A DNA stretch of 64,000 nucleotides from an uncultured delta proteobacterium (GTDB taxonomy: Bacteria; Desulfobacterota; Desulfomonilia; UBA1062). The stretch spans positions 128,001 to 192,000 of the forward strand of contig CAWCTR010000007.1 in the NCBI GenBank assembly GCA_963798485.1. Reading direction: 5' to 3'. Numbering within the stretch: the first letter of the stretch is position 1; every line of letters starts with the position of its first letter. Positions 9,919-47,124 of this stretch are shown here, in pieces. The notes beneath the pieces were generated by a model. That model saw only the letters and a program-made list of their open reading frames with translations. It was not told where the DNA came from and did not search any database. The position numbers and the translations under genes were made by a program.

Positions 9919-9991
9919 GCGGGCATAGCTCAGTTGGTAGAGTGTCAGCTTCCCAAGCTGAATGTCGCGGGTTCGAATCCCGTTGCCCGCT
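9919..9991 (+). tRNA. tRNA-Gly(CCC), CCA not encoded
   Basis: GCGGGCA...TGCCCGC acceptor stem, TAGCTCAGTTGGTAGAG D arm, TCAGC-TTCCCAA-GCTGA anticodon arm, GGTTCGAATCC T arm. Confidence 0.96.
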
Positions 9992-30577: not shown

Positions 30578-30650
30578 GGGCCCATAGCTCAATTGGTAGA
30601 GCCACCGGCTCATAACCGGTAGGTCCCTGGTTCGATTCCAGGTGGGCCCA
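30578..30650 (+). tRNA. tRNA with CAT anticodon, most likely tRNA-Ile2 (lysidine type)
   Basis: GGGCCCA acceptor stem with paired 1-72, so not an initiator; CCGG-CTCATAA-CCGG anticodon arm as in Ile2 tRNAs; CCA not encoded. Confidence 0.9.
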
Positions 30651-40363: not shown

Positions 40364-40999
40364 ATGAAGCTGGTTGTAACCGAGATCTTTTATTCCCTCC
40401 AGGGCGAAGGGCCTTTCATGGGTTTGCCTTCGGTCTTCATCCGCCTGGGCGGATGCATAGACCCCTTATGCCCATGGTGTGACACCGAATATGCCTGGCA
40501 TGAATACAGCGAGATGGGAACCGACGAGATTATTGCAGAGGTGAACAGGTATGCCTGCAAGGATGTGGTAATCACCGGCGGGGAACCTTTCCTCCAATGG
40601 GAATTGGGGCTCAAAGATCTTCATAGCGAGCTTGTCGGAAGCGGATACCGCATATTCTATGAGACCAGCGGCAAGATTGACATCCCGGGTCTATTAGATG
40701 CAACCATTGTCATGAGTCCGAAAAATATCGCAGGACAGTGGCATCTCCCTTTAGGAAACATAGAAAAAGCCGATTATTTCAAATTTGTGGCAGATGATGC
40801 GGCAGCGCTTGGCGAGATCGACCGGTTTGTAAAGGACCATGCCATTGCCAAAGACCGTGTGTTTATGATGCCCCAGGGCAAGACCAGGGCCGAACAGCTC
40901 AAAAGGATGGCGACAATATTTTCCTTCTGCAGGAAACACGGCTACCGGATGACCCCACGGCTCCATGTGCTCATCTTTGATGATAAACGAGGTGTATGA
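40364..40999 (+). CDS. queE: 7-carboxy-7-deazaguanine synthase (radical SAM)
   Basis: EIFYSLQGEG, FIRLGGC...CPWCDT, ITGGEP, ETSG, RLH. Confidence 0.92.
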   Translation: MKLVVTEIFYSLQGEGPFMGLPSVFIRLGGCIDPLCPWCDTEYAWHEYSEMGTDEIIAEVNRYACKDVVITGGEPFLQWELGLKDLHSELVGSGYRIFYETSGKIDIPGLLDATIVMSPKNIAGQWHLPLGNIEKADYFKFVADDAAALGEIDRFVKDHAIAKDRVFMMPQGKTRAEQLKRMATIFSFCRKHGYRMTPRLHVLIFDDKRGV

Positions 41000-41658
41000 T
41001 GGATGATGCCGTGATCCTTCTCTCCGGCGGCATGGACTCGGGCGTGATGCTGGCCTGGGCAAGGCCCCGCTTCAGCCATTTACATGCCTTAAGCTTTGAT
41101 TATGGTTCAAAGCATGCCGTAAAAGAGCTCATTATGGCTCAAAATCTTGCGGAAGTATACGGTGCCCGCTTCACAAAGGTGGAGCTGCCGTTTGTCAACA
41201 CCCTGTTCTCTTCCAGCCTGTTGCAATCAGGAGAAGAGATCCCGGACGGACCCTACCGGACTGACTCCATTTCATCCACAGTGGTCCCCTTCAGGAACGG
41301 GATCATGCTGTCAGTCGCTATTGGCTATGCGGAAACCCATCAGATCTCTACCGTGCTCATTGCATCACATTCAGGAGACCATCCCATTTATCCTGACTGC
41401 ACTGTTGAGTTCACCGAGGCCATGTCACAGACGGCAGCACTCGGCACCTTCACCAAGGTAAAGATCGAGGCCCCCTTTGCAGGGTTTGACAAGAGACGGA
41501 TCGCAGGGATCGGCCGGGGGTTGAACTTTGATTTCACCCGGACCTGGTCCTGCTACAAGGGCCTTGAGCTGCACTGCGGAGCCTGCGCCACCTGCCTGGA
41601 GAGAAAATACGCCCTGGAGTATGAGGCCGGCCTTGACCCAACGAGGTACCTGGTATGA
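40996..41658 (+). CDS. queC: 7-cyano-7-deazaguanine synthase
   Basis: LSGGMDS, VPFRN, YPDC, TWSCY...CGACATC. Confidence 0.95.
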   Translation: MMDDAVILLSGGMDSGVMLAWARPRFSHLHALSFDYGSKHAVKELIMAQNLAEVYGARFTKVELPFVNTLFSSSLLQSGEEIPDGPYRTDSISSTVVPFRNGIMLSVAIGYAETHQISTVLIASHSGDHPIYPDCTVEFTEAMSQTAALGTFTKVKIEAPFAGFDKRRIAGIGRGLNFDFTRTWSCYKGLELHCGACATCLERKYALEYEAGLDPTRYLV

Positions 41659-42455
41659 ACCGGATACCGCTTGGCAGAAAAATCCCTCAGCCCAAGGGTC
41701 ATGACCCTAAAGTGCTTTATCCCATACCAAGAAAGCCCTGCGAAATAAGGCTCTACGGGTATGACCTCTGGCGGTCTTACGAACTATCCTGGCTTAACAG
41801 CAAAGGCAAACCCCGGATAGGCATCCTCGAGATCGTCTATCCCACCCAAAGCAAGTGTATTGTGGAGTCGAAATCCCTCAAGCTCTACTTAGGCGGACTC
41901 TCATACGAGAATTTCGATTCGGCCAAAGGGATTGAAGAAATCATCCGGCATGACCTCGATCATATCCTGCTGCCCGAATGGATCTCGGTGCGCATCATTG
42001 AACAGGCCGGTTTTCCGCAGATGACATGTCAGCCTCATCCGGATGGCACCTGCCTGGACAACCAGGACGTTCAGATTCCTGGCTTCCAAAGGGACCCTGC
42101 CCTGCTCTCATGCGCACAAGGCTTATCTGAAGAGACACTCTACTCGGATTTGCTGAAGACCAACTGCCCTATCACAGGCCAGCCGGACTGGGGGAGTGTG
42201 GCCATATGCTACCAGGGAAGGACTATCGACCATGAAGCGCTGCTGAAATATATCTATTCCTATCGTGATCACGAAGGATTTGCAGAAGATGTTTGTGAAC
42301 AGATATTTTTAGATATTATGGAGAGATGCAAGCCGGACACGTTAACCGTCAGGTGTTCTTATACGAGGCGAGGCGGAATCGATATAAACCCCTTCAGGAG
42401 CTCTCACCCAATCGACCCGGATAATATCGACAAGGCAAGGCTCATCCGCCAGTAA
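41655..42455 (+). CDS. queF: NADPH-dependent preQ0 reductase (bimodular type)
   Basis: YELSWLN, VESKSLKLYL, NCPITGQPDWG, YTRRGGIDINP. Confidence 0.94.
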   Translation: MNRIPLGRKIPQPKGHDPKVLYPIPRKPCEIRLYGYDLWRSYELSWLNSKGKPRIGILEIVYPTQSKCIVESKSLKLYLGGLSYENFDSAKGIEEIIRHDLDHILLPEWISVRIIEQAGFPQMTCQPHPDGTCLDNQDVQIPGFQRDPALLSCAQGLSEETLYSDLLKTNCPITGQPDWGSVAICYQGRTIDHEALLKYIYSYRDHEGFAEDVCEQIFLDIMERCKPDTLTVRCSYTRRGGIDINPFRSSHPIDPDNIDKARLIRQ

Positions 42456-42533
42456 TACCCCCCCTCTCAAAAGATTATCTTAAGTGGGATGACAAGGGAA
42501 AGATGGTTAGGTAAAAGAGTAACATCATGCGCT

Positions 42534-43028
42534 TCAATGCGGCGTGATTGATATCGTCCCTTTGATATCCGCCTTAAATCCCAACATCGCGAAATCGCCC
42601 AAGCTCGGTCCCGTCGTATCGTTCCCAACGCGAATGGCGCCGATGGTGAATTTGTTGATATTGATGGTCATATCGATCTGCTGTGTGCCGAGACCAAAAG
42701 ACCCGAGACCCATCAATCCGAGACCCATCATCCCGAAACCAGGAACAGCGGCATTGGCCATTTGATTGGCCAGGTTTGTATTCGGGGGAGTGGAATTTCT
42801 TGAGGTCACGGAGCCTTGGATTGTTACATCGCTGAAATTAAAAAACCCATCCCCCATGTTGGGAATATACGAGTTGAACGTAGCGGTTGTATCCTCGGCA
42901 AACCCCGCCTGACCGATGACTTCGCTCAAATCGGCATCGGACAAAGCCACCATCTTGGCTAATCCTGCCTGCGGGAGCATGAGCATTGCGATTATACAGA
43001 GAGCAGCAAGTAGGGTTGTTCTGTTCAT
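42534..43028 (-). CDS. Small secreted protein, DUF6160-like
   Basis: Signal peptide ending AGLA, then KMVALSDADLSEVIGQAG; AAGGAG RBS. Family assignment is from memory of the motif. Confidence 0.75.
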   Translation of the reverse strand: MNRTTLLAALCIIAMLMLPQAGLAKMVALSDADLSEVIGQAGFAEDTTATFNSYIPNMGDGFFNFSDVTIQGSVTSRNSTPPNTNLANQMANAAVPGFGMMGLGLMGLGSFGLGTQQIDMTININKFTIGAIRVGNDTTGPSLGDFAMLGFKADIKGTISITPH

Positions 43029-43049
43029 TGGAACTCCTTTCTGATGAGG

Positions 43050-43135
43050 TTCTCCAGGCGACCCGGCTGTCCACACTCCCTGTGGACCCGTGGCTTTCCG
43101 GCCCATGGTTACCCATGGTGTGGCTAGAGTGAGAA
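43050..43135 (-). ncRNA. c-di-GMP-I (GEMM) riboswitch aptamer, proximal copy C
   Basis: Minus strand AGCCACACC-ATGG-GTAA-CCAT-GGGCCGGAAAGCCACGGGTCC...GGACAGCCGGGTCGCC matches the GEMM-I consensus. Confidence 0.88.
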
Positions 43136-43151
43136 GTGCTGGTGAATCCTT

Positions 43152-43230
43152 TTCAGGCGACCCGGCTGTCCGAGCACTATTTCGGACCCGTGGTTTTCCG
43201 GCCCATGGTTACCCATGGTGTGGCTCTGAA
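43152..43230 (-). ncRNA. c-di-GMP-I (GEMM) riboswitch aptamer, middle copy B
   Basis: TTCAG-AGCCACACCATGGGTAACCATGGGCCGGAAAACCACGGGTCCGA...TCGGACAGCCGGGTCGC-CTGAA, with P1 TTCAG/CTGAA. Confidence 0.9.
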
Positions 43231-43233
43231 GGA

Positions 43234-43312
43234 GGCGACCCGGCTGTCCACCCTCCGTTAGGCATGGACCCGTGGTTTTCCGTCCCACAGTTACCTGTGG
43301 TTTGGCTTGTGA
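43234..43312 (-). ncRNA. c-di-GMP-I (GEMM) riboswitch aptamer, distal copy A
   Basis: AAGCCAAACC-ACAG-GTAA-CTGT-GGGACGGAAAACCACGGGTCCA...TGGACAGCCGGGTCGCC; P2 shows compensatory changes relative to copies B and C. Confidence 0.88.
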
Positions 43313-43670
43313 AGGAGTGCGCGAGAGATCTCTCAAGGAGATCCCGGCGCGAGTTTTCCCTCGTTGTTTCTATTAAAAAGGTACGAGCGCTGCTTTAAGT
43401 TACTCTTTTACCCATGTGTGGCCTCTGGAGCCAAAGAGCACACATGGCTCTTTCATAAATTGTCAAAGAACACTTCAGGCATTAAGCCCTGCTATAATTT
43501 AACCTATCGAGCACAATGGCAAAAACATTAGCCCTGTTGTCTTAATAAACGCAGGGTTTCAGGTTCACCGGGAAAGTAAGCTGGGAAGAGCGTGTAAGGC
43601 CGCTGGATATAAGTGTGAAGAGTAGCATGGATTACAAAAAGGGAATTCCATTTGATAGGCTATCATACTT

Positions 43671-46600
43671 TCAGGCATGTTCCTTATGTTTAAGCTCTTT
43701 TGCCATTCGTTTTTCCTGTAGCGGATTACCCATCTCTTTCCAGAGCTCGAGTGATTTACCAAAGCACCGTTGCGCCTTTGATGACTTGCCGGCCGCCTTG
43801 AGGAGATTCCCCCATGAGGCAATGAGCCAGGCCTGATGGGGTTTCATCATGGATGAGCAAGCAAGGGCATATGCCCGTGATAGTGTTTTATGGGCAGTAT
43901 CATATTGACCTTGGGAGGTGCATATCTCGGCAAATACCCTTAAGGCCCAGATGAGCTGGTCGACATTCCCCTTTTGCTCATTCCAGGTTATACTTTCCTG
44001 GGCAGCACTCAGTGCAGTGCTATAATCACCCAGGAGGCGGCATGCCTCAGCCAGTGCGTTCAGGGCATAGGGCACCCGGTTGGCAACACCATCCCTTAGG
44101 CCAGGAAGTGCATTATTGATGAGCTCCTTTGCCTCTTCAGGATTACCTTTTTCCAATGCAATCCATGCACGGTACAGGTCCTTTATCGAACCTGCACAGT
44201 GGATTTCTCCCCCCAGGGCATTGAATGCATCCAGATCGGCAGTGGCACCCTGTATGTTTCCGAAATACCGAGCGCGGAAATAGATGGAACCCTGAATCCT
44301 CAAATAGGAAAGCCCGCCTGCAATCATCCCTAGCTTCATCTCCCTCGAAGATACATCCTCAAAAACCCTACGGGCCTCTTCAAATCTTCCTTCAAGACAA
44401 CATATATGGGCAAGCCATATGTCCGCCATGAGATCAATGTCCATATATGCACTGCTGAATCTCTTTGTTTCTCCATACCAAGATCGTGAACCCTCCAGAT
44501 CACCCTTCCATACGCTTGCAGCCAACGTAGTCAGGACATTGACGGTATAAAGAAACCGGTCCGATGCGTCGAGGGTAGGTCTGGCATTATCAAGCAGGCG
44601 CAAGGCATCAAGGGGCTTGCCGAGAAAGGTGTAGGTATAGGCAAAGGCGGTATGTGCTGCGGCAATCAACACCGGATTATCACAGATGAGGTTTAAGGCA
44701 AAGTCATAGCACTCTTTTGCCTTATTAAAGAGACCCTTCTGGGAATAGAGGTTAATGAGCCGGATGGAGCAAAAGGCCTCTTCCTCATTAAGGCCCTTAT
44801 TGCGGTAAATGCCCGCAAGACGCTCCAGGGCGATAATGGCCCGGCCCGGACTGAATATACGATAGCATCTCCAGATCCCTTCTTGTATAGCCACAAGCAG
44901 CTCTTCTGCGTCAGGCAACGTTTTGCCGGCCTTAAGATGTTGTTCTGCTGATAAAAAATGCGCCCCGGCCTCAACCCATGCCCCTGTTGCCTGGCAGTGT
45001 TTGCCGGCTTCCATATGGTAATACACCGCCTTCGAATGTTCCTGTGCCTTTCCGAAATGATGGGCAAGCTCTCCGGCATGATCCTTTAAACATAATCCGC
45101 AACTGTCTTCAATGGCCAGTGCGATCTTCTTGTGCAGCCTGATCCGCTCTTTCTTCAAGAGGGTCCTGCTTGCAACATCGCGGATAATCTCATGCTTGAA
45201 GATGTATTCGCCCTTACCGAGGGATTGGATGAAGCCATGTTTGACTGATTCACTTAAGCCCTCTTTCAAGACATCCTTCTCTGAGCACACCAAAACCAAT
45301 AAGGCTTCAGTAAATATCCTTCCAATAAAGGCCGACTCCTGGAGTATCCTCTTGGAAGCGGCCCCCATATGATCAAGCCGCGAAGAGATGAGCCCGTACA
45401 GTGTCGTGGGCAGATCATCCAAAAGGACTATTTGGCCTTGATTGGTTAGATCCACCCCTTTTTCCAGGAGGTAGTTGGTCACCTCTTCAACAAAGAATGG
45501 GTTGCCTCCTGTTGCTTCAGCCAGAGAACTCACCGTCATATCAGGGACTAGGACAGCATTAAGCATATTTTTAAGCATCTCACCCACTTCAGCTTCACCG
45601 AGCTCCTGCAGGATCAGGCGGGCACCGGGAAAGGCGCTCGCCACTCCATGACGGTGCGTAAGGAGCAGCAGACAGGGACAGGACTTATCCCACCTATGGA
45701 TAAGATATGTCAGAAGATCAAGCGTACTCTGGTCCGCCCAATGGATATCCTCAATGCAGAAGATTGTAGGCAGATTCAAGGCCGCAGAGCTGAGCAGCCA
45801 CAACATGGCATCACTGCCTTTCACCTTGAGGATATCCGGAGATTCACCACCTTTGGTGGCAGCGCTATCCATGAAGAAGGCAAGGTGAGCAGCATACTCC
45901 CCGGACAGTCCATGCCGGGTTAAGGCCCGGGCAATATCATGGGTGTCGCTATGCATACTATCGAGCCCCAATAATGCCTGTACGAGTCTCGAAAAGGGAA
46001 AGTACGGCTTAGAGCTTGTATGATCGAAACAGGTTGCTGTTATGAATAGTACACCCTTATCAAGGGTTATCTTAAATTCTTCAATGAGCCTGCTCTTGCC
46101 GACACCTGCATCGCCGATGATGCAGGTTACGCAGCCTTTGCCTGATTGAAGATCCCTCGCCTTTGATAAAAGTATAGACAGCTCATGCTCGCGGCCCACC
46201 AGCGGCGAGGTGACCCCACCCACCCTGTGTAGTGCAAGGGGGATTTTTCTCTCCTGGATAACCTTGTATACGTGGATGGGCTTTCTGAATCCCTTGAGCA
46301 ACTTTTTGCCCATCCATTCGAGATGAAAATACCGCATCGCATCGGATACAAGCGCCTCTCCGATGAGTATCTCTCCATCTGACGCCATGTCACACAGCCT
46401 GGAAGCTATGTTGATGGGCTTACCCAGCGTGCCGTGCGATGAGTGGCATGGATTGCCGGAATCAACAAGCACCTCGCCCGTGTTTATGCCCGTATGCATG
46501 TTCAAACGGATGTTACAGGTATTAAGCAGGGGCATATTCAACCCTCCCACGGTCTTGTGGATTTCCAGGGCGGCAAGGATGCCTCTTACAGGATCATCCT

Positions 46601-46898
46601 CCCGGGCCTTAGCATTGCCGAATATGGCAAGCACTGCATCACCGATATACTTTTCCACTATGCCGCCATAGCCCCTGATAACCCCGGTGATTTCGCTCAG
46701 GACTTTGCCCATGAACGCACTGAGGTCCTCATGGTCGAGCCTTTCGGACAGCAGGCTGTATCCGCTTAAATCCGTACAGACAATGGTAACAAAGCGATAT
46801 TCAGGGACAGGTTCACCCTGAGAAAGGCAAGAGCCGCACCGGGAGCAGTACCGGTCGGATGAATCAACACTCGCGCCGCATACCGTACAATCTTTCAT
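43671..46898 (-). CDS. Class III adenylate/guanylate cyclase fused to a zinc ribbon, STAND AAA ATPase and TPR-like repeats
   Basis: CTVC...CSRC; TDLSGYS, EKYIGDAV, INIASRL; Walker A GDAGVGKSRL; Walker B IEDIHWAD; GGNPFF; helical C-terminal repeats. Confidence 0.92.
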   Translation of the reverse strand: MKDCTVCGASVDSSDRYCSRCGSCLSQGEPVPEYRFVTIVCTDLSGYSLLSERLDHEDLSAFMGKVLSEITGVIRGYGGIVEKYIGDAVLAIFGNAKAREDDPVRGILAALEIHKTVGGLNMPLLNTCNIRLNMHTGINTGEVLVDSGNPCHSSHGTLGKPINIASRLCDMASDGEILIGEALVSDAMRYFHLEWMGKKLLKGFRKPIHVYKVIQERKIPLALHRVGGVTSPLVGREHELSILLSKARDLQSGKGCVTCIIGDAGVGKSRLIEEFKITLDKGVLFITATCFDHTSSKPYFPFSRLVQALLGLDSMHSDTHDIARALTRHGLSGEYAAHLAFFMDSAATKGGESPDILKVKGSDAMLWLLSSAALNLPTIFCIEDIHWADQSTLDLLTYLIHRWDKSCPCLLLLTHRHGVASAFPGARLILQELGEAEVGEMLKNMLNAVLVPDMTVSSLAEATGGNPFFVEEVTNYLLEKGVDLTNQGQIVLLDDLPTTLYGLISSRLDHMGAASKRILQESAFIGRIFTEALLVLVCSEKDVLKEGLSESVKHGFIQSLGKGEYIFKHEIIRDVASRTLLKKERIRLHKKIALAIEDSCGLCLKDHAGELAHHFGKAQEHSKAVYYHMEAGKHCQATGAWVEAGAHFLSAEQHLKAGKTLPDAEELLVAIQEGIWRCYRIFSPGRAIIALERLAGIYRNKGLNEEEAFCSIRLINLYSQKGLFNKAKECYDFALNLICDNPVLIAAAHTAFAYTYTFLGKPLDALRLLDNARPTLDASDRFLYTVNVLTTLAASVWKGDLEGSRSWYGETKRFSSAYMDIDLMADIWLAHICCLEGRFEEARRVFEDVSSREMKLGMIAGGLSYLRIQGSIYFRARYFGNIQGATADLDAFNALGGEIHCAGSIKDLYRAWIALEKGNPEEAKELINNALPGLRDGVANRVPYALNALAEACRLLGDYSTALSAAQESITWNEQKGNVDQLIWALRVFAEICTSQGQYDTAHKTLSRAYALACSSMMKPHQAWLIASWGNLLKAAGKSSKAQRCFGKSLELWKEMGNPLQEKRMAKELKHKEHA

Positions 46899-47124
46899 AG
46901 GTTCCCTCCTTCTCACGCAGGTTAAACATGCACAACGATGAAGGTTTCTGTTCAGGAGGGGTGGTATTTGAATTCAAATTGACCATCAGGTCAAAATCAC
47001 ACATAATAACTCAAATATACCTAATACTCCTCGCCGAGGCCATTCAATAGAGAAATCTTGATCGGAAGAGCATATAGTGATACGAAAGTGAGGAAAGGCT
47101 TATAAATTATAGGGGAAGATCTTT

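Follow-up and report, generated by a model that had tools for sequence, protein, structure and literature searches.

Three adjacent class I cyclic di-GMP aptamers with a single Shine–Dalgarno sequence: a candidate composite riboswitch in uncultured Desulfomonilia

The DNA analysed here, a stretch of 64,000 nt from an uncultured delta proteobacterium of the Desulfomonilia (positions 128,001 to 192,000 of contig CAWCTR010000007.1, assembly GCA_963798485.1; 'the window' in the following), encodes on its minus strand a small DUF6160 protein whose leader of about 460 nt contains three class I cyclic di-GMP (c-di-GMP-I or GEMM-I) aptamers, termed A, B and C, followed by a single Shine–Dalgarno (SD) sequence. 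The three aptamers are genuine and under structural selection. With moderate confidence, we read the array as one composite riboswitch, i.e. a translational ON switch in which three aptamers would feed one SD platform, which would be centred on B, with C embedded in it and A playing an accessory part.

Searching the window's own 4.3-Mb assembly with the Rfam model RF01051 returned A, B and C and no other match, with E-values of 2.9e-11 to 2.1e-9 (150 of the 247 first-look candidates were scored). All three lie well above the gathering score of 35 bits that served as the threshold for membership, in line with a preliminary description of the window, which had expected three hits from its letters alone:

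43231..43316, minus strand: aptamer A, c-di-GMP-I (RF01051, 60.9 bits; pocket G 43306, A 43279, C 43235)
43153..43234, minus strand: aptamer B, c-di-GMP-I (RF01051, 53.4 bits; pocket G 43224, A 43197, C 43157)
43054..43134, minus strand: aptamer C, c-di-GMP-I (RF01051, 55.1 bits; pocket G 43124, A 43097, C 43058)

A loose pattern for the 5′ half of the aptamer matched 18 sites across the genome, of which A, B and C alone were plausible. Scanning the whole window at the gathering threshold prints A and C only, because the match of B overlaps that of A by 4 nt; B is recovered when positions 43135-43229 are scanned by themselves. The same assembly contains 10 GGDEF matches.

The pocket positions, which we take to be G20, A47 and C92 of the Vc2 numbering, were mapped via the Rfam consensus; each of the three copies has G, A and C there. 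This mapping is supported by the clan variants RF03167 and RF03168, since their printed consensus differs at exactly these positions. Both variant models (GGC and UAU) score below their own cut-offs, RF03168 at 59.1 versus 65.9 and RF03167 at 57.6 and 50.9 versus 59. The signature of GEMM-Ib, which binds 3′3′-cyclic GMP-AMP (3′3′-cGAMP) and has an A at the G20 position, is absent from the three window copies, all of which have G there. The intact pocket and the failing variant models together make c-di-GMP the predicted ligand of A, B and C, as had been proposed.

Within the array, A abuts B, and 18 nt separate B from C. The 3′ core motif recurs at the offsets first described, 78 nt from A to B and 99 nt from B to C, while the spacing of the G20-equivalent positions is 82 and 100 nt. 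Each copy has the GUAA loop and a P3 tip different from those of the other two, again as described. The hairpin of the GNRA arm reads CCACAG/CUGUGG in A and CCAUGG/CCAUGG in both B and C, whose 5′ halves are identical. As B and C are near-duplicates in the window, evidence for selection on structure comes from relatives.

Such relatives were available as 52 genomes of one family of uncultured Desulfomonilia (the window's own genome is G000). RF01051 matches occur in 34 of these, and 32 have them at this syntenic locus, including all 14 genomes of genus g1, 11 of 12 in g5, all five in g11 and one of two in g12. Three matches with like spacing were found at 25 of the 32 array loci; there, the models of A and B overlap by 4–7 nt, and B and C are 17–20 nt apart. 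The other seven loci show one or two matches, owing to contig ends (G004, G065, G072), a diverged A (G001, G067, G074) or a two-unit form (G014). The other two family genomes with matches carry a single aptamer at another locus, and RF01051 was not found in 24 sister-family genomes. Twenty-nine complete leaders were parsed; the 28 with three units form alignment A1, to which the counts below refer unless another number is given.

In this alignment, 97.2% of the cells in the aptamer helices are paired, as opposed to 25–48% when partners are slid by one to three columns. Double changes affect 17 pairs versus 7.6 in shuffles, and none of 500 shuffles reaches 17 (two extra pairs assigned to the inner helix of A sit in wrong columns and are to be disregarded). 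Compensatory pairs are present in each of A, B and C, and the leader remains alignable between genera although the DUF6160 protein drops to 30–36% identity. The claim of covarying stems therefore stands among relatives; it does not within the window, where the duplicates B and C offer no independent covariation.

Between and after the aptamer cores lie the segments on which the proposed switch would depend:

43311..43317, minus strand: second CUCCUUC, in the 5′ flank of A; present in genus g1 and some others, not in all
43229..43234, minus strand: A–B junction CUCCUU, i.e. 3′ tail of A, predicted 5′ strand of the P1 helix of B and anti-SD; CUCCU invariant in 28 of 28 leaders
43148..43156, minus strand: B tail CUGAAAAGG, predicted 3′ strand of B P1 and SD-like decoy
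43139..43147, minus strand: linker AUUCACCAG, predicted distal 5′ strand of C P1
43125..43138, minus strand: spacer from the linker to C, 8–16 nt in relatives, with no invariant column
43047..43057, minus strand: C tail CUGGAGAACCU, predicted 3′ strand of C P1
43034..43046, minus strand: pre-SD CAUCAG and SD AAAGGAG, the predicted expression platform; 10 of 15 columns invariant

Mean column identity is 0.98 in the B tail, 0.95 in the C tail and 0.90 in the pre-SD plus SD, 0.68–0.81 in the aptamer cores, 0.56 in the 5′ flank of A, 0.48 in the spacer before C and 0.36 in the spacer from SD to ATG. In other words, the tails between and after the aptamers are better conserved than the aptamers themselves. 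Every array found keeps the adjacency. There is one SD, located in the window at 43034-43040 with its AAGGAG at 43039-43034. The distance to this motif had been put at about 10 nt; the match of C ends 14 nt before it, and 17 nt separate it from the pocket-side C (43057). The aptamers lie too close together to accommodate terminators, and a scan of the minus strand from 43030 to 43500 gave no terminator-like site, which bears out the reported lack of terminators between the aptamers, whereas both single aptamers elsewhere in the family carry a classic terminator overlapping the aptamer 3′ strand. Adjacent homologous aptamers followed by one platform, the arrangement typical of glycine riboswitches, are thus what the anatomy provides, and the platform is predicted to function as such.

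How these strands may pair was assessed by duplex energies, given as means over the 28 leaders for real and for shuffled sequence. A lacks its own P1: its flank and tail pair at −0.8 kcal/mol versus −1.1 kcal/mol when shuffled, as the preliminary description had it. Also as described there, A runs straight into the 5′ flank of B, with which it shares its tail. The junction pairs with the B tail, forming B P1, at −6.4 versus −4.0 kcal/mol (−5.6 to −8.3 kcal/mol by distinct sequence pair), and the best register includes the last three bases of A, its pocket C among them. Two further complementarities had been left out of the preliminary description. The junction is complementary to the SD (−7.2 versus −3.8 kcal/mol), and the B tail plus linker pairs with the C tail plus pre-SD at −14.1 versus −5.0 kcal/mol. 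Within the latter, the linker and the C tail form a distal C P1 at −8.1 versus −3.2 kcal/mol. A proximal C P1 between the spacer and the C tail was rejected as weak and unconserved (−2.7 versus −1.8 kcal/mol); folding G000 and G002 produced it solely after B P1 had been forced.

The consensus structure predicted by RNAalifold from alignment A1 contains the same long-range helices. In all 28 leaders, CUCCU pairs with the AGGAG of the SD, and CUGA of the B tail pairs with UCAG of the pre-SD (columns 205-208 with 328-331). Together with CUCCU:AGGAG, the helices CUGA:UCAG, GG:CU, UUC:GAA and CAG:CUG form a nest around aptamer C, in which 89.6% of the cells are paired, compared with 25–52% when partners are slid. 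The UUC:GAA and CAG:CUG pairs between linker and C tail are retained in 27–28 of the 28 leaders, and three inner pairs show double changes. Pre-SD and SD are paired both in this consensus and in seven of seven single-sequence folds, all of which hide the SD with CUCCU(U). Complementarity and conservation of the long-range helices are therefore plain to see; covariation is not.

From these elements, a mechanism can be proposed. Without ligand, nested long-range helices would conceal the SD: the tail of A, i.e. the junction CUCCUU, would pair with AAGGAG, CUGA of the B tail with UCAG directly before the SD, and the linker with the C tail as C P1. C P1 would bring the pre-SD next to the B tail, and C would lie within the platform of B. 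The canonical P1 of B draws on the bases of the SD-hiding nest, so that binding of ligand to B should free the SD: c-di-GMP would lock B P1 and thereby withdraw both the anti-SD and CUGA. Higher c-di-GMP would then mean higher expression, in keeping with a secreted, matrix-type protein. C P1 shares a continuous strand (43139-43156) with B P1, so that the sites of B and C are probably coupled mechanically. A lacks a P1, and its pocket C and tail overlap the B P1 strand, which is why it should act only through B or the anti-SD, perhaps as a tuner or scaffold. The direction of the switch, the sign of the coupling and the role of A are what we infer from this layout, and a nearest-neighbour model supports direction and cooperativity only in part.

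In that model, forcing the aptamer cores gives a free-SD probability that does not exceed 0.052 in 27 of 28 leaders. Forcing B P1 costs 0.6–9.6 kcal/mol, which falls within the range of c-di-GMP binding energies. Several observations weigh against an ON switch centred on B, the first group coming from the same calculations. Forcing B P1 yields a free-SD probability of at least 0.1 in just 5 of 28 leaders, and forcing B P1 together with C P1 frees the SD in 6 of 28 (0.94 in G033, 0.58 in G064). In genus g1, which includes the window, the value stays at or below 0.016 after forcing, G005 excepted; in this genus, the second CUCCUU in the A flank takes the SD. This is seen in the single-sequence folds of G000 and G002, and the A flank pairs with the SD at −7.6 to −12 kcal/mol in most g1 leaders and at about 0 in G032, G063 and G064. 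When full-length leaders are folded, the SD is also within reach of other pyrimidine boxes, and the A flank often pairs with an upstream purine run instead. Both modelled states contain C P1, which leaves C without a switching role in the model, and the best register of B P1 uses the pocket C of A, which would imply antagonism, not cooperativity, between A and B.

The second group concerns the helices as such. B P1 is modest, with 3–30% of shuffled tails pairing equally well, and the spacer of 8–16 nt between the 5′ strand of C P1 and the pocket G is unusual. A double change is found at 3 of 20 long-range pairs, a count reached by 83 of 500 shuffles; as these helices are nearly invariant, covariation neither supports nor refutes them. 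Finally, ligand binding and regulation by the array are themselves predictions from sequence.

A stronger form of the proposal, to which we give tentative credence only, is that shared strands, following one another without a gap, link the three pockets. The pocket C and tail of A would be the 5′ strand of B P1 and, at the same time, the anti-SD; the 3′ strand of B P1 would continue into the 5′ strand of C P1, and the 3′ strand of C P1 into the pre-SD and SD. If true, this would be the first c-di-GMP riboswitch with aptamers sharing helices and one translational platform, and a very steep (Hill coefficient >2) or two-threshold response would become possible.

Among other explanations, the one that fares best, and which we regard as possible without favouring it, is that only B and C sense the ligand, while A is mainly a structural or 'ghost' partner that may hold the junction or dock its GNRA hairpin on a neighbour. 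The ghost aptamer of singlet glycine riboswitches serves as the model for such a partner. The missing P1 of A fits this role, as do the natural variants: the pocket of A is degenerate in three of the 28 three-unit leaders (G001, locus L016; G067, L038; G074, L037), all of which still keep the GNRA hairpin, the 3′ strand of A and the junction. One whole unit has been lost in G014 (L017), whose two-unit leader has an A-like core fused directly to the B tail, and the pocket of C is intact in 29 of 29 leaders. However, A retains its G/A/C triad in the other 25 leaders, all helices of A show compensatory changes, and A scores as high as B and C, arguing for a ligand-binding fold.

Unlikely, in our estimation, is the opposite polarity, i.e. 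an OFF switch or two-threshold device in which ligand at C and A stabilises the SD-hiding nest and ligand at B opposes it. The helix between the tail of A and the SD, which would act as a P1 in trans, does begin exactly one base after the pocket C of A, and C P1 is both compatible with the OFF fold and coaxial with the B tail:pre-SD and junction:SD helices. Yet the canonical P1 of B is incompatible with the SD-hiding fold, the single aptamers of the family are terminator-type ON designs, and a secreted protein of this kind would be expected to rise with c-di-GMP.

Two more alternatives are both rather improbable. In the first, the SD is not occluded at all; rather, compaction of the long leader by ligand shields C-rich, G-poor stretches from Rho, or else RNase sites. 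The leader of about 460 nt is untranslated, lacks intrinsic terminators and includes a C-rich, G-poor linker and spacer (43125-43147), and extra conserved boxes in the 5′ and 3′ untranslated regions (UTRs) suggest control of stability. Translational control nevertheless remains the simplest account of an invariant anti-SD/SD complementarity combined with an SD-like decoy. In the second, already raised in the preliminary description, the 3′ strand of B is contested by the 5′ flanks of A and B, which are near-identical and would be alternative partners of a single P1. Both flank sequences quoted there are present; the A flank CUCCUUCACAAG resembles the junction in the window and most of g1, where it pairs with the B tail at −5 to −8.9 kcal/mol, and in G014, it is the sole partner of the B tail. 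The competition itself is not conserved, however: over the 28 leaders, the A flank pairs with the B tail no better than shuffled sequence (−5.0 versus −4.8 kcal/mol). Moreover, the CUCCUU-like motif of the A flank is absent from G033 and from G032, G063 and G064, in which A directly follows an upstream box, and such a helix would not abut the pocket C of A. That three complete aptamer cores in one leader act as independent, pseudo-cooperative riboswitches in the manner of Bc3-5 of Bacillus thuringiensis is already contradicted by the anatomy, in which the matches of A and B overlap by 4 nt, B and C lie 18 nt apart, terminators are lacking, a single SD is available and A has no P1, and hardly merits belief.

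Returning to the composite ON switch, its central aptamer varies as well. The pocket of B reads G/A/C in 25 of 28 leaders (24 by script, G067 by eye), A/A/C in G007 and G011 (loci L011 and L012) and G/A/U in G073 (L041). In an excerpt of the relevant study, an A at the G20 position is given as a signature linked to binding of c-AMP-GMP (Sherlock 2022, PMC9481103). The arrays of G007, G011 and G073, in which A and C stay G/A/C, may mix ligand specificities, and the G20-to-A change of copy B in two species could make a mixed c-di-GMP/cGAMP gate. Taken together, the ghost-like A, the two-unit form and the mixed gate suggest that the design can be rewired, and the ghost A, the two-unit form and the G20-to-A copy of B are ready controls provided by nature. 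Outside the sampled genomes, a metagenome scan with the junction pattern, which is too unspecific, revealed no aptamer motif next to the junction in 80 loci, and the 40 of these that were listed all proved to be chance matches.

The aptamers are not the only conserved part of the transcript, as further elements are found upstream of them and past the stop codon:

43399..43492, minus strand: conserved 5′ leader domain, upstream of the aptamers in 29 leaders
43476-43492, minus strand: GC-rich hairpin with compensatory changes between genomes
43460-43471, minus strand: invariant box GUUCUUUGACAA, in 29 leaders
43412-43447, minus strand: long hairpin with double changes at 4 pairs
43399-43413, minus strand: invariant purine box GGGUAAAAGAGUAAC, in 29 leaders
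42509..42523, minus strand: 3′ UTR box GUUACUCUUUUACCU (GUUACUCUUUUACC), a 15-nt complement of the 5′ purine box

The 5′ domain (43399-43492) has no Rfam match at E<=10. According to RNAalifold, the box UUCUUUGAC pairs with GUAAAAGAG of the purine box around the long hairpin. The 3′ UTR box is located 8–13 nt past the stop codon in all 27 loci with a complete open reading frame (ORF), and every observed variant of the purine box or of the 3′ UTR box is an A-to-G change opposite U, which keeps a wobble pair. Such wobble-keeping variants fit RNA pairing between the UTRs better than a DNA inverted repeat, and the sequences suggest that the 5′ and 3′ UTRs pair. Two other readings of the 5′ domain were rejected by eye: the long hairpin is not a small ORF, as the frame is not kept and a 1-nt insertion in G018 is compensated by the stem, and the hairpin loop has a spacing unfit for a sigma-54 promoter. 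A separate observation, made by eye, concerns the P3 loop of B (43176-43190, minus strand), which carries AAAAGAGUG in g1 relatives and AAAUAGUG in the window. This motif, which is absent from g5-type arrays, is similar to the 5′ purine box and shows complementarity to the pyrimidine boxes.

The gene presumed to be under control of the array and a putative promoter are placed as follows:

42534..43028, minus strand: gene for a 164-aa DUF6160 protein with a signal-peptide-like start (PF19657, E 1.9e-7)
43494..43522, minus strand: promoter-like TTGCCA-17-AATTAT, from a consensus scan only (1 site versus 1.3 expected)

The 164-aa protein matches PF19657 with 31.7 bits versus a cut-off of 27, has no family in NCBIfam and retrieved nothing but DUF6160 clusters from a protein atlas. 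In 28 of 28 loci, the array is followed by a DUF6160 homologue. The family has several copies in G000, with 11 matches, 10 of them above the cut-off, in open frames of 140–487 aa, and only the copy in the window is associated with c-di-GMP-I aptamers. An AlphaFold model built from 33 sequences (mean predicted local distance difference test 50.5, predicted template modelling score 0.43) was too poor for a fold search, and a literature search for DUF6160 found no functional study. The array would thus mark one member of an uncharacterised multi-copy family as a c-di-GMP output in uncultured Desulfomonilia.

Upstream of the leader (43671-46916, minus strand) lies a gene encoding a zinc ribbon, a class III nucleotide cyclase, AAA_16 and tetratricopeptide repeats, which is syntenic in 24 of 28 loci. 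Downstream, a convergent cluster of queE-like, queC and queF genes occupies 40364-42455 on the plus strand, and its queF is syntenic in 27 of 28 loci. Further away, the window contains two tRNA genes, at 9919-9991 and 30578-30650 on the plus strand, scoring 72.8 bits each.

Transcripts were sought in four metatranscriptome libraries from different studies, which can hold DNA and whose contigs, being 85–95% like the window, stem from relatives. In library X10, one 619-nt contig spans from 42864, inside the ORF, through all three aptamers to 43478; X17 has a contig covering 42641-43147 and a separate one covering 43266-43471. These contigs do not prove a single transcript; they hint weakly at joint transcription of the long leader and the gene, with a start near the promoter-like site. 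Short pieces that diverge from the window, with loose ends at 43083 and 43124, account for the high depth at 43056-43137 and presumably represent other organisms' aptamer cores; the stretches uncovered in all four runs (42400-42522 and 43507-43600) were not used as evidence.

How the array relates to known tandem riboswitches can be gauged from the literature, here on the basis of excerpts of the papers cited. Tandem arrangements are common in this class: a third of delta-proteobacterial GEMM RNAs were reported to be tandem (Weinberg 2007), and a later census counted 347 doublets and 12 triplets, making c-di-GMP-I the class with the most tandem arrangements (Sherlock et al. 2022, PMC9481103). 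Table 1 of the census places these tandems under multiple expression platforms, and its text treats them as pseudo-cooperative complete riboswitches. More generally, the excerpted literature treats c-di-GMP-I tandems as chains of complete, independent switches. The best-known triple consists of Bc3, Bc4 and Bc5 of B. thuringiensis, three complete riboswitches that have their own terminators and act independently (Zhou et al. 2016, PMC4759541). Like Bc3-5, the window array has three c-di-GMP-I aptamers in one 5′ UTR, precedes a gene of surface or secreted function and is predicted to be an ON design. Unlike Bc3-5, as the preliminary description rightly stressed, its aptamers have no terminators of their own and abut one another or nearly so (gaps of 0 and 18 nt), with shared strands and one SD-proximal platform.

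In these respects, the array comes closer to riboswitches with several aptamers and a single platform, for which the census discusses tandem glycine and NAD+-I and lists guanidine-II in its Table 1, with guanine/phosphoribosyl pyrophosphate listed for two different ligands (PMC9481103). As in the tandem glycine riboswitch, adjacent homologous aptamers for one ligand are followed by a single platform, and ghost aptamers of the glycine class are possibly analogous to the degenerate A copies in the family of the window. In contrast to tandem glycine, fold and ligand are different, there are three units rather than two, and contacts or cooperativity between the aptamers are predicted at most. A recent survey defines 'adjacent aptamers' as being <20 nt apart and finds c-di-GMP enriched among tandem terminator-bearing riboswitches and glycine typical of adjacent aptamers (Microb Genom 2025, PMC12452182); by this definition, the window array belongs with the adjacent aptamers. 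The full-text literature searched holds no account of adjacent c-di-GMP-I aptamers sharing one translational platform, and this locus may already be counted, though unanalysed, among the 12 triplets of the census.

A related case exists in another family of the same phylum. In a phylum sample of 151 genomes, 62 of which have RF01051 matches, a single further abutting pair occurs among the 150 listed matches (another 62 are unlisted), a doublet in G115 (locus L176, C76:33500-34400). Like the window array, it consists of adjacent aptamers and lacks a terminator; two alternative partners are available to the 5′ flank of the first aptamer, namely the linker, giving a P1, and the SD region. The doublet has a CTCTTTGACAA box upstream of it and is followed by a gene for a secreted-type protein of 116 aa, which shares a similar motif at the N-terminus and whose DUF6160 match is below threshold (E 0.032). 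Unlike the window array, the doublet has two units, a first aptamer with its own P1 and a purine-rich linker. As predicted from its sequence, G115 is an independent case in which the same switching logic recurs with two units. If confirmed, such arrays would add c-di-GMP to the short list of ligands with multi-aptamer, single-platform riboswitches, i.e. glycine, guanidine-II and NAD+-I, and would offer a natural system in which to study how a steep or multi-threshold response to a second messenger can be built from RNA.

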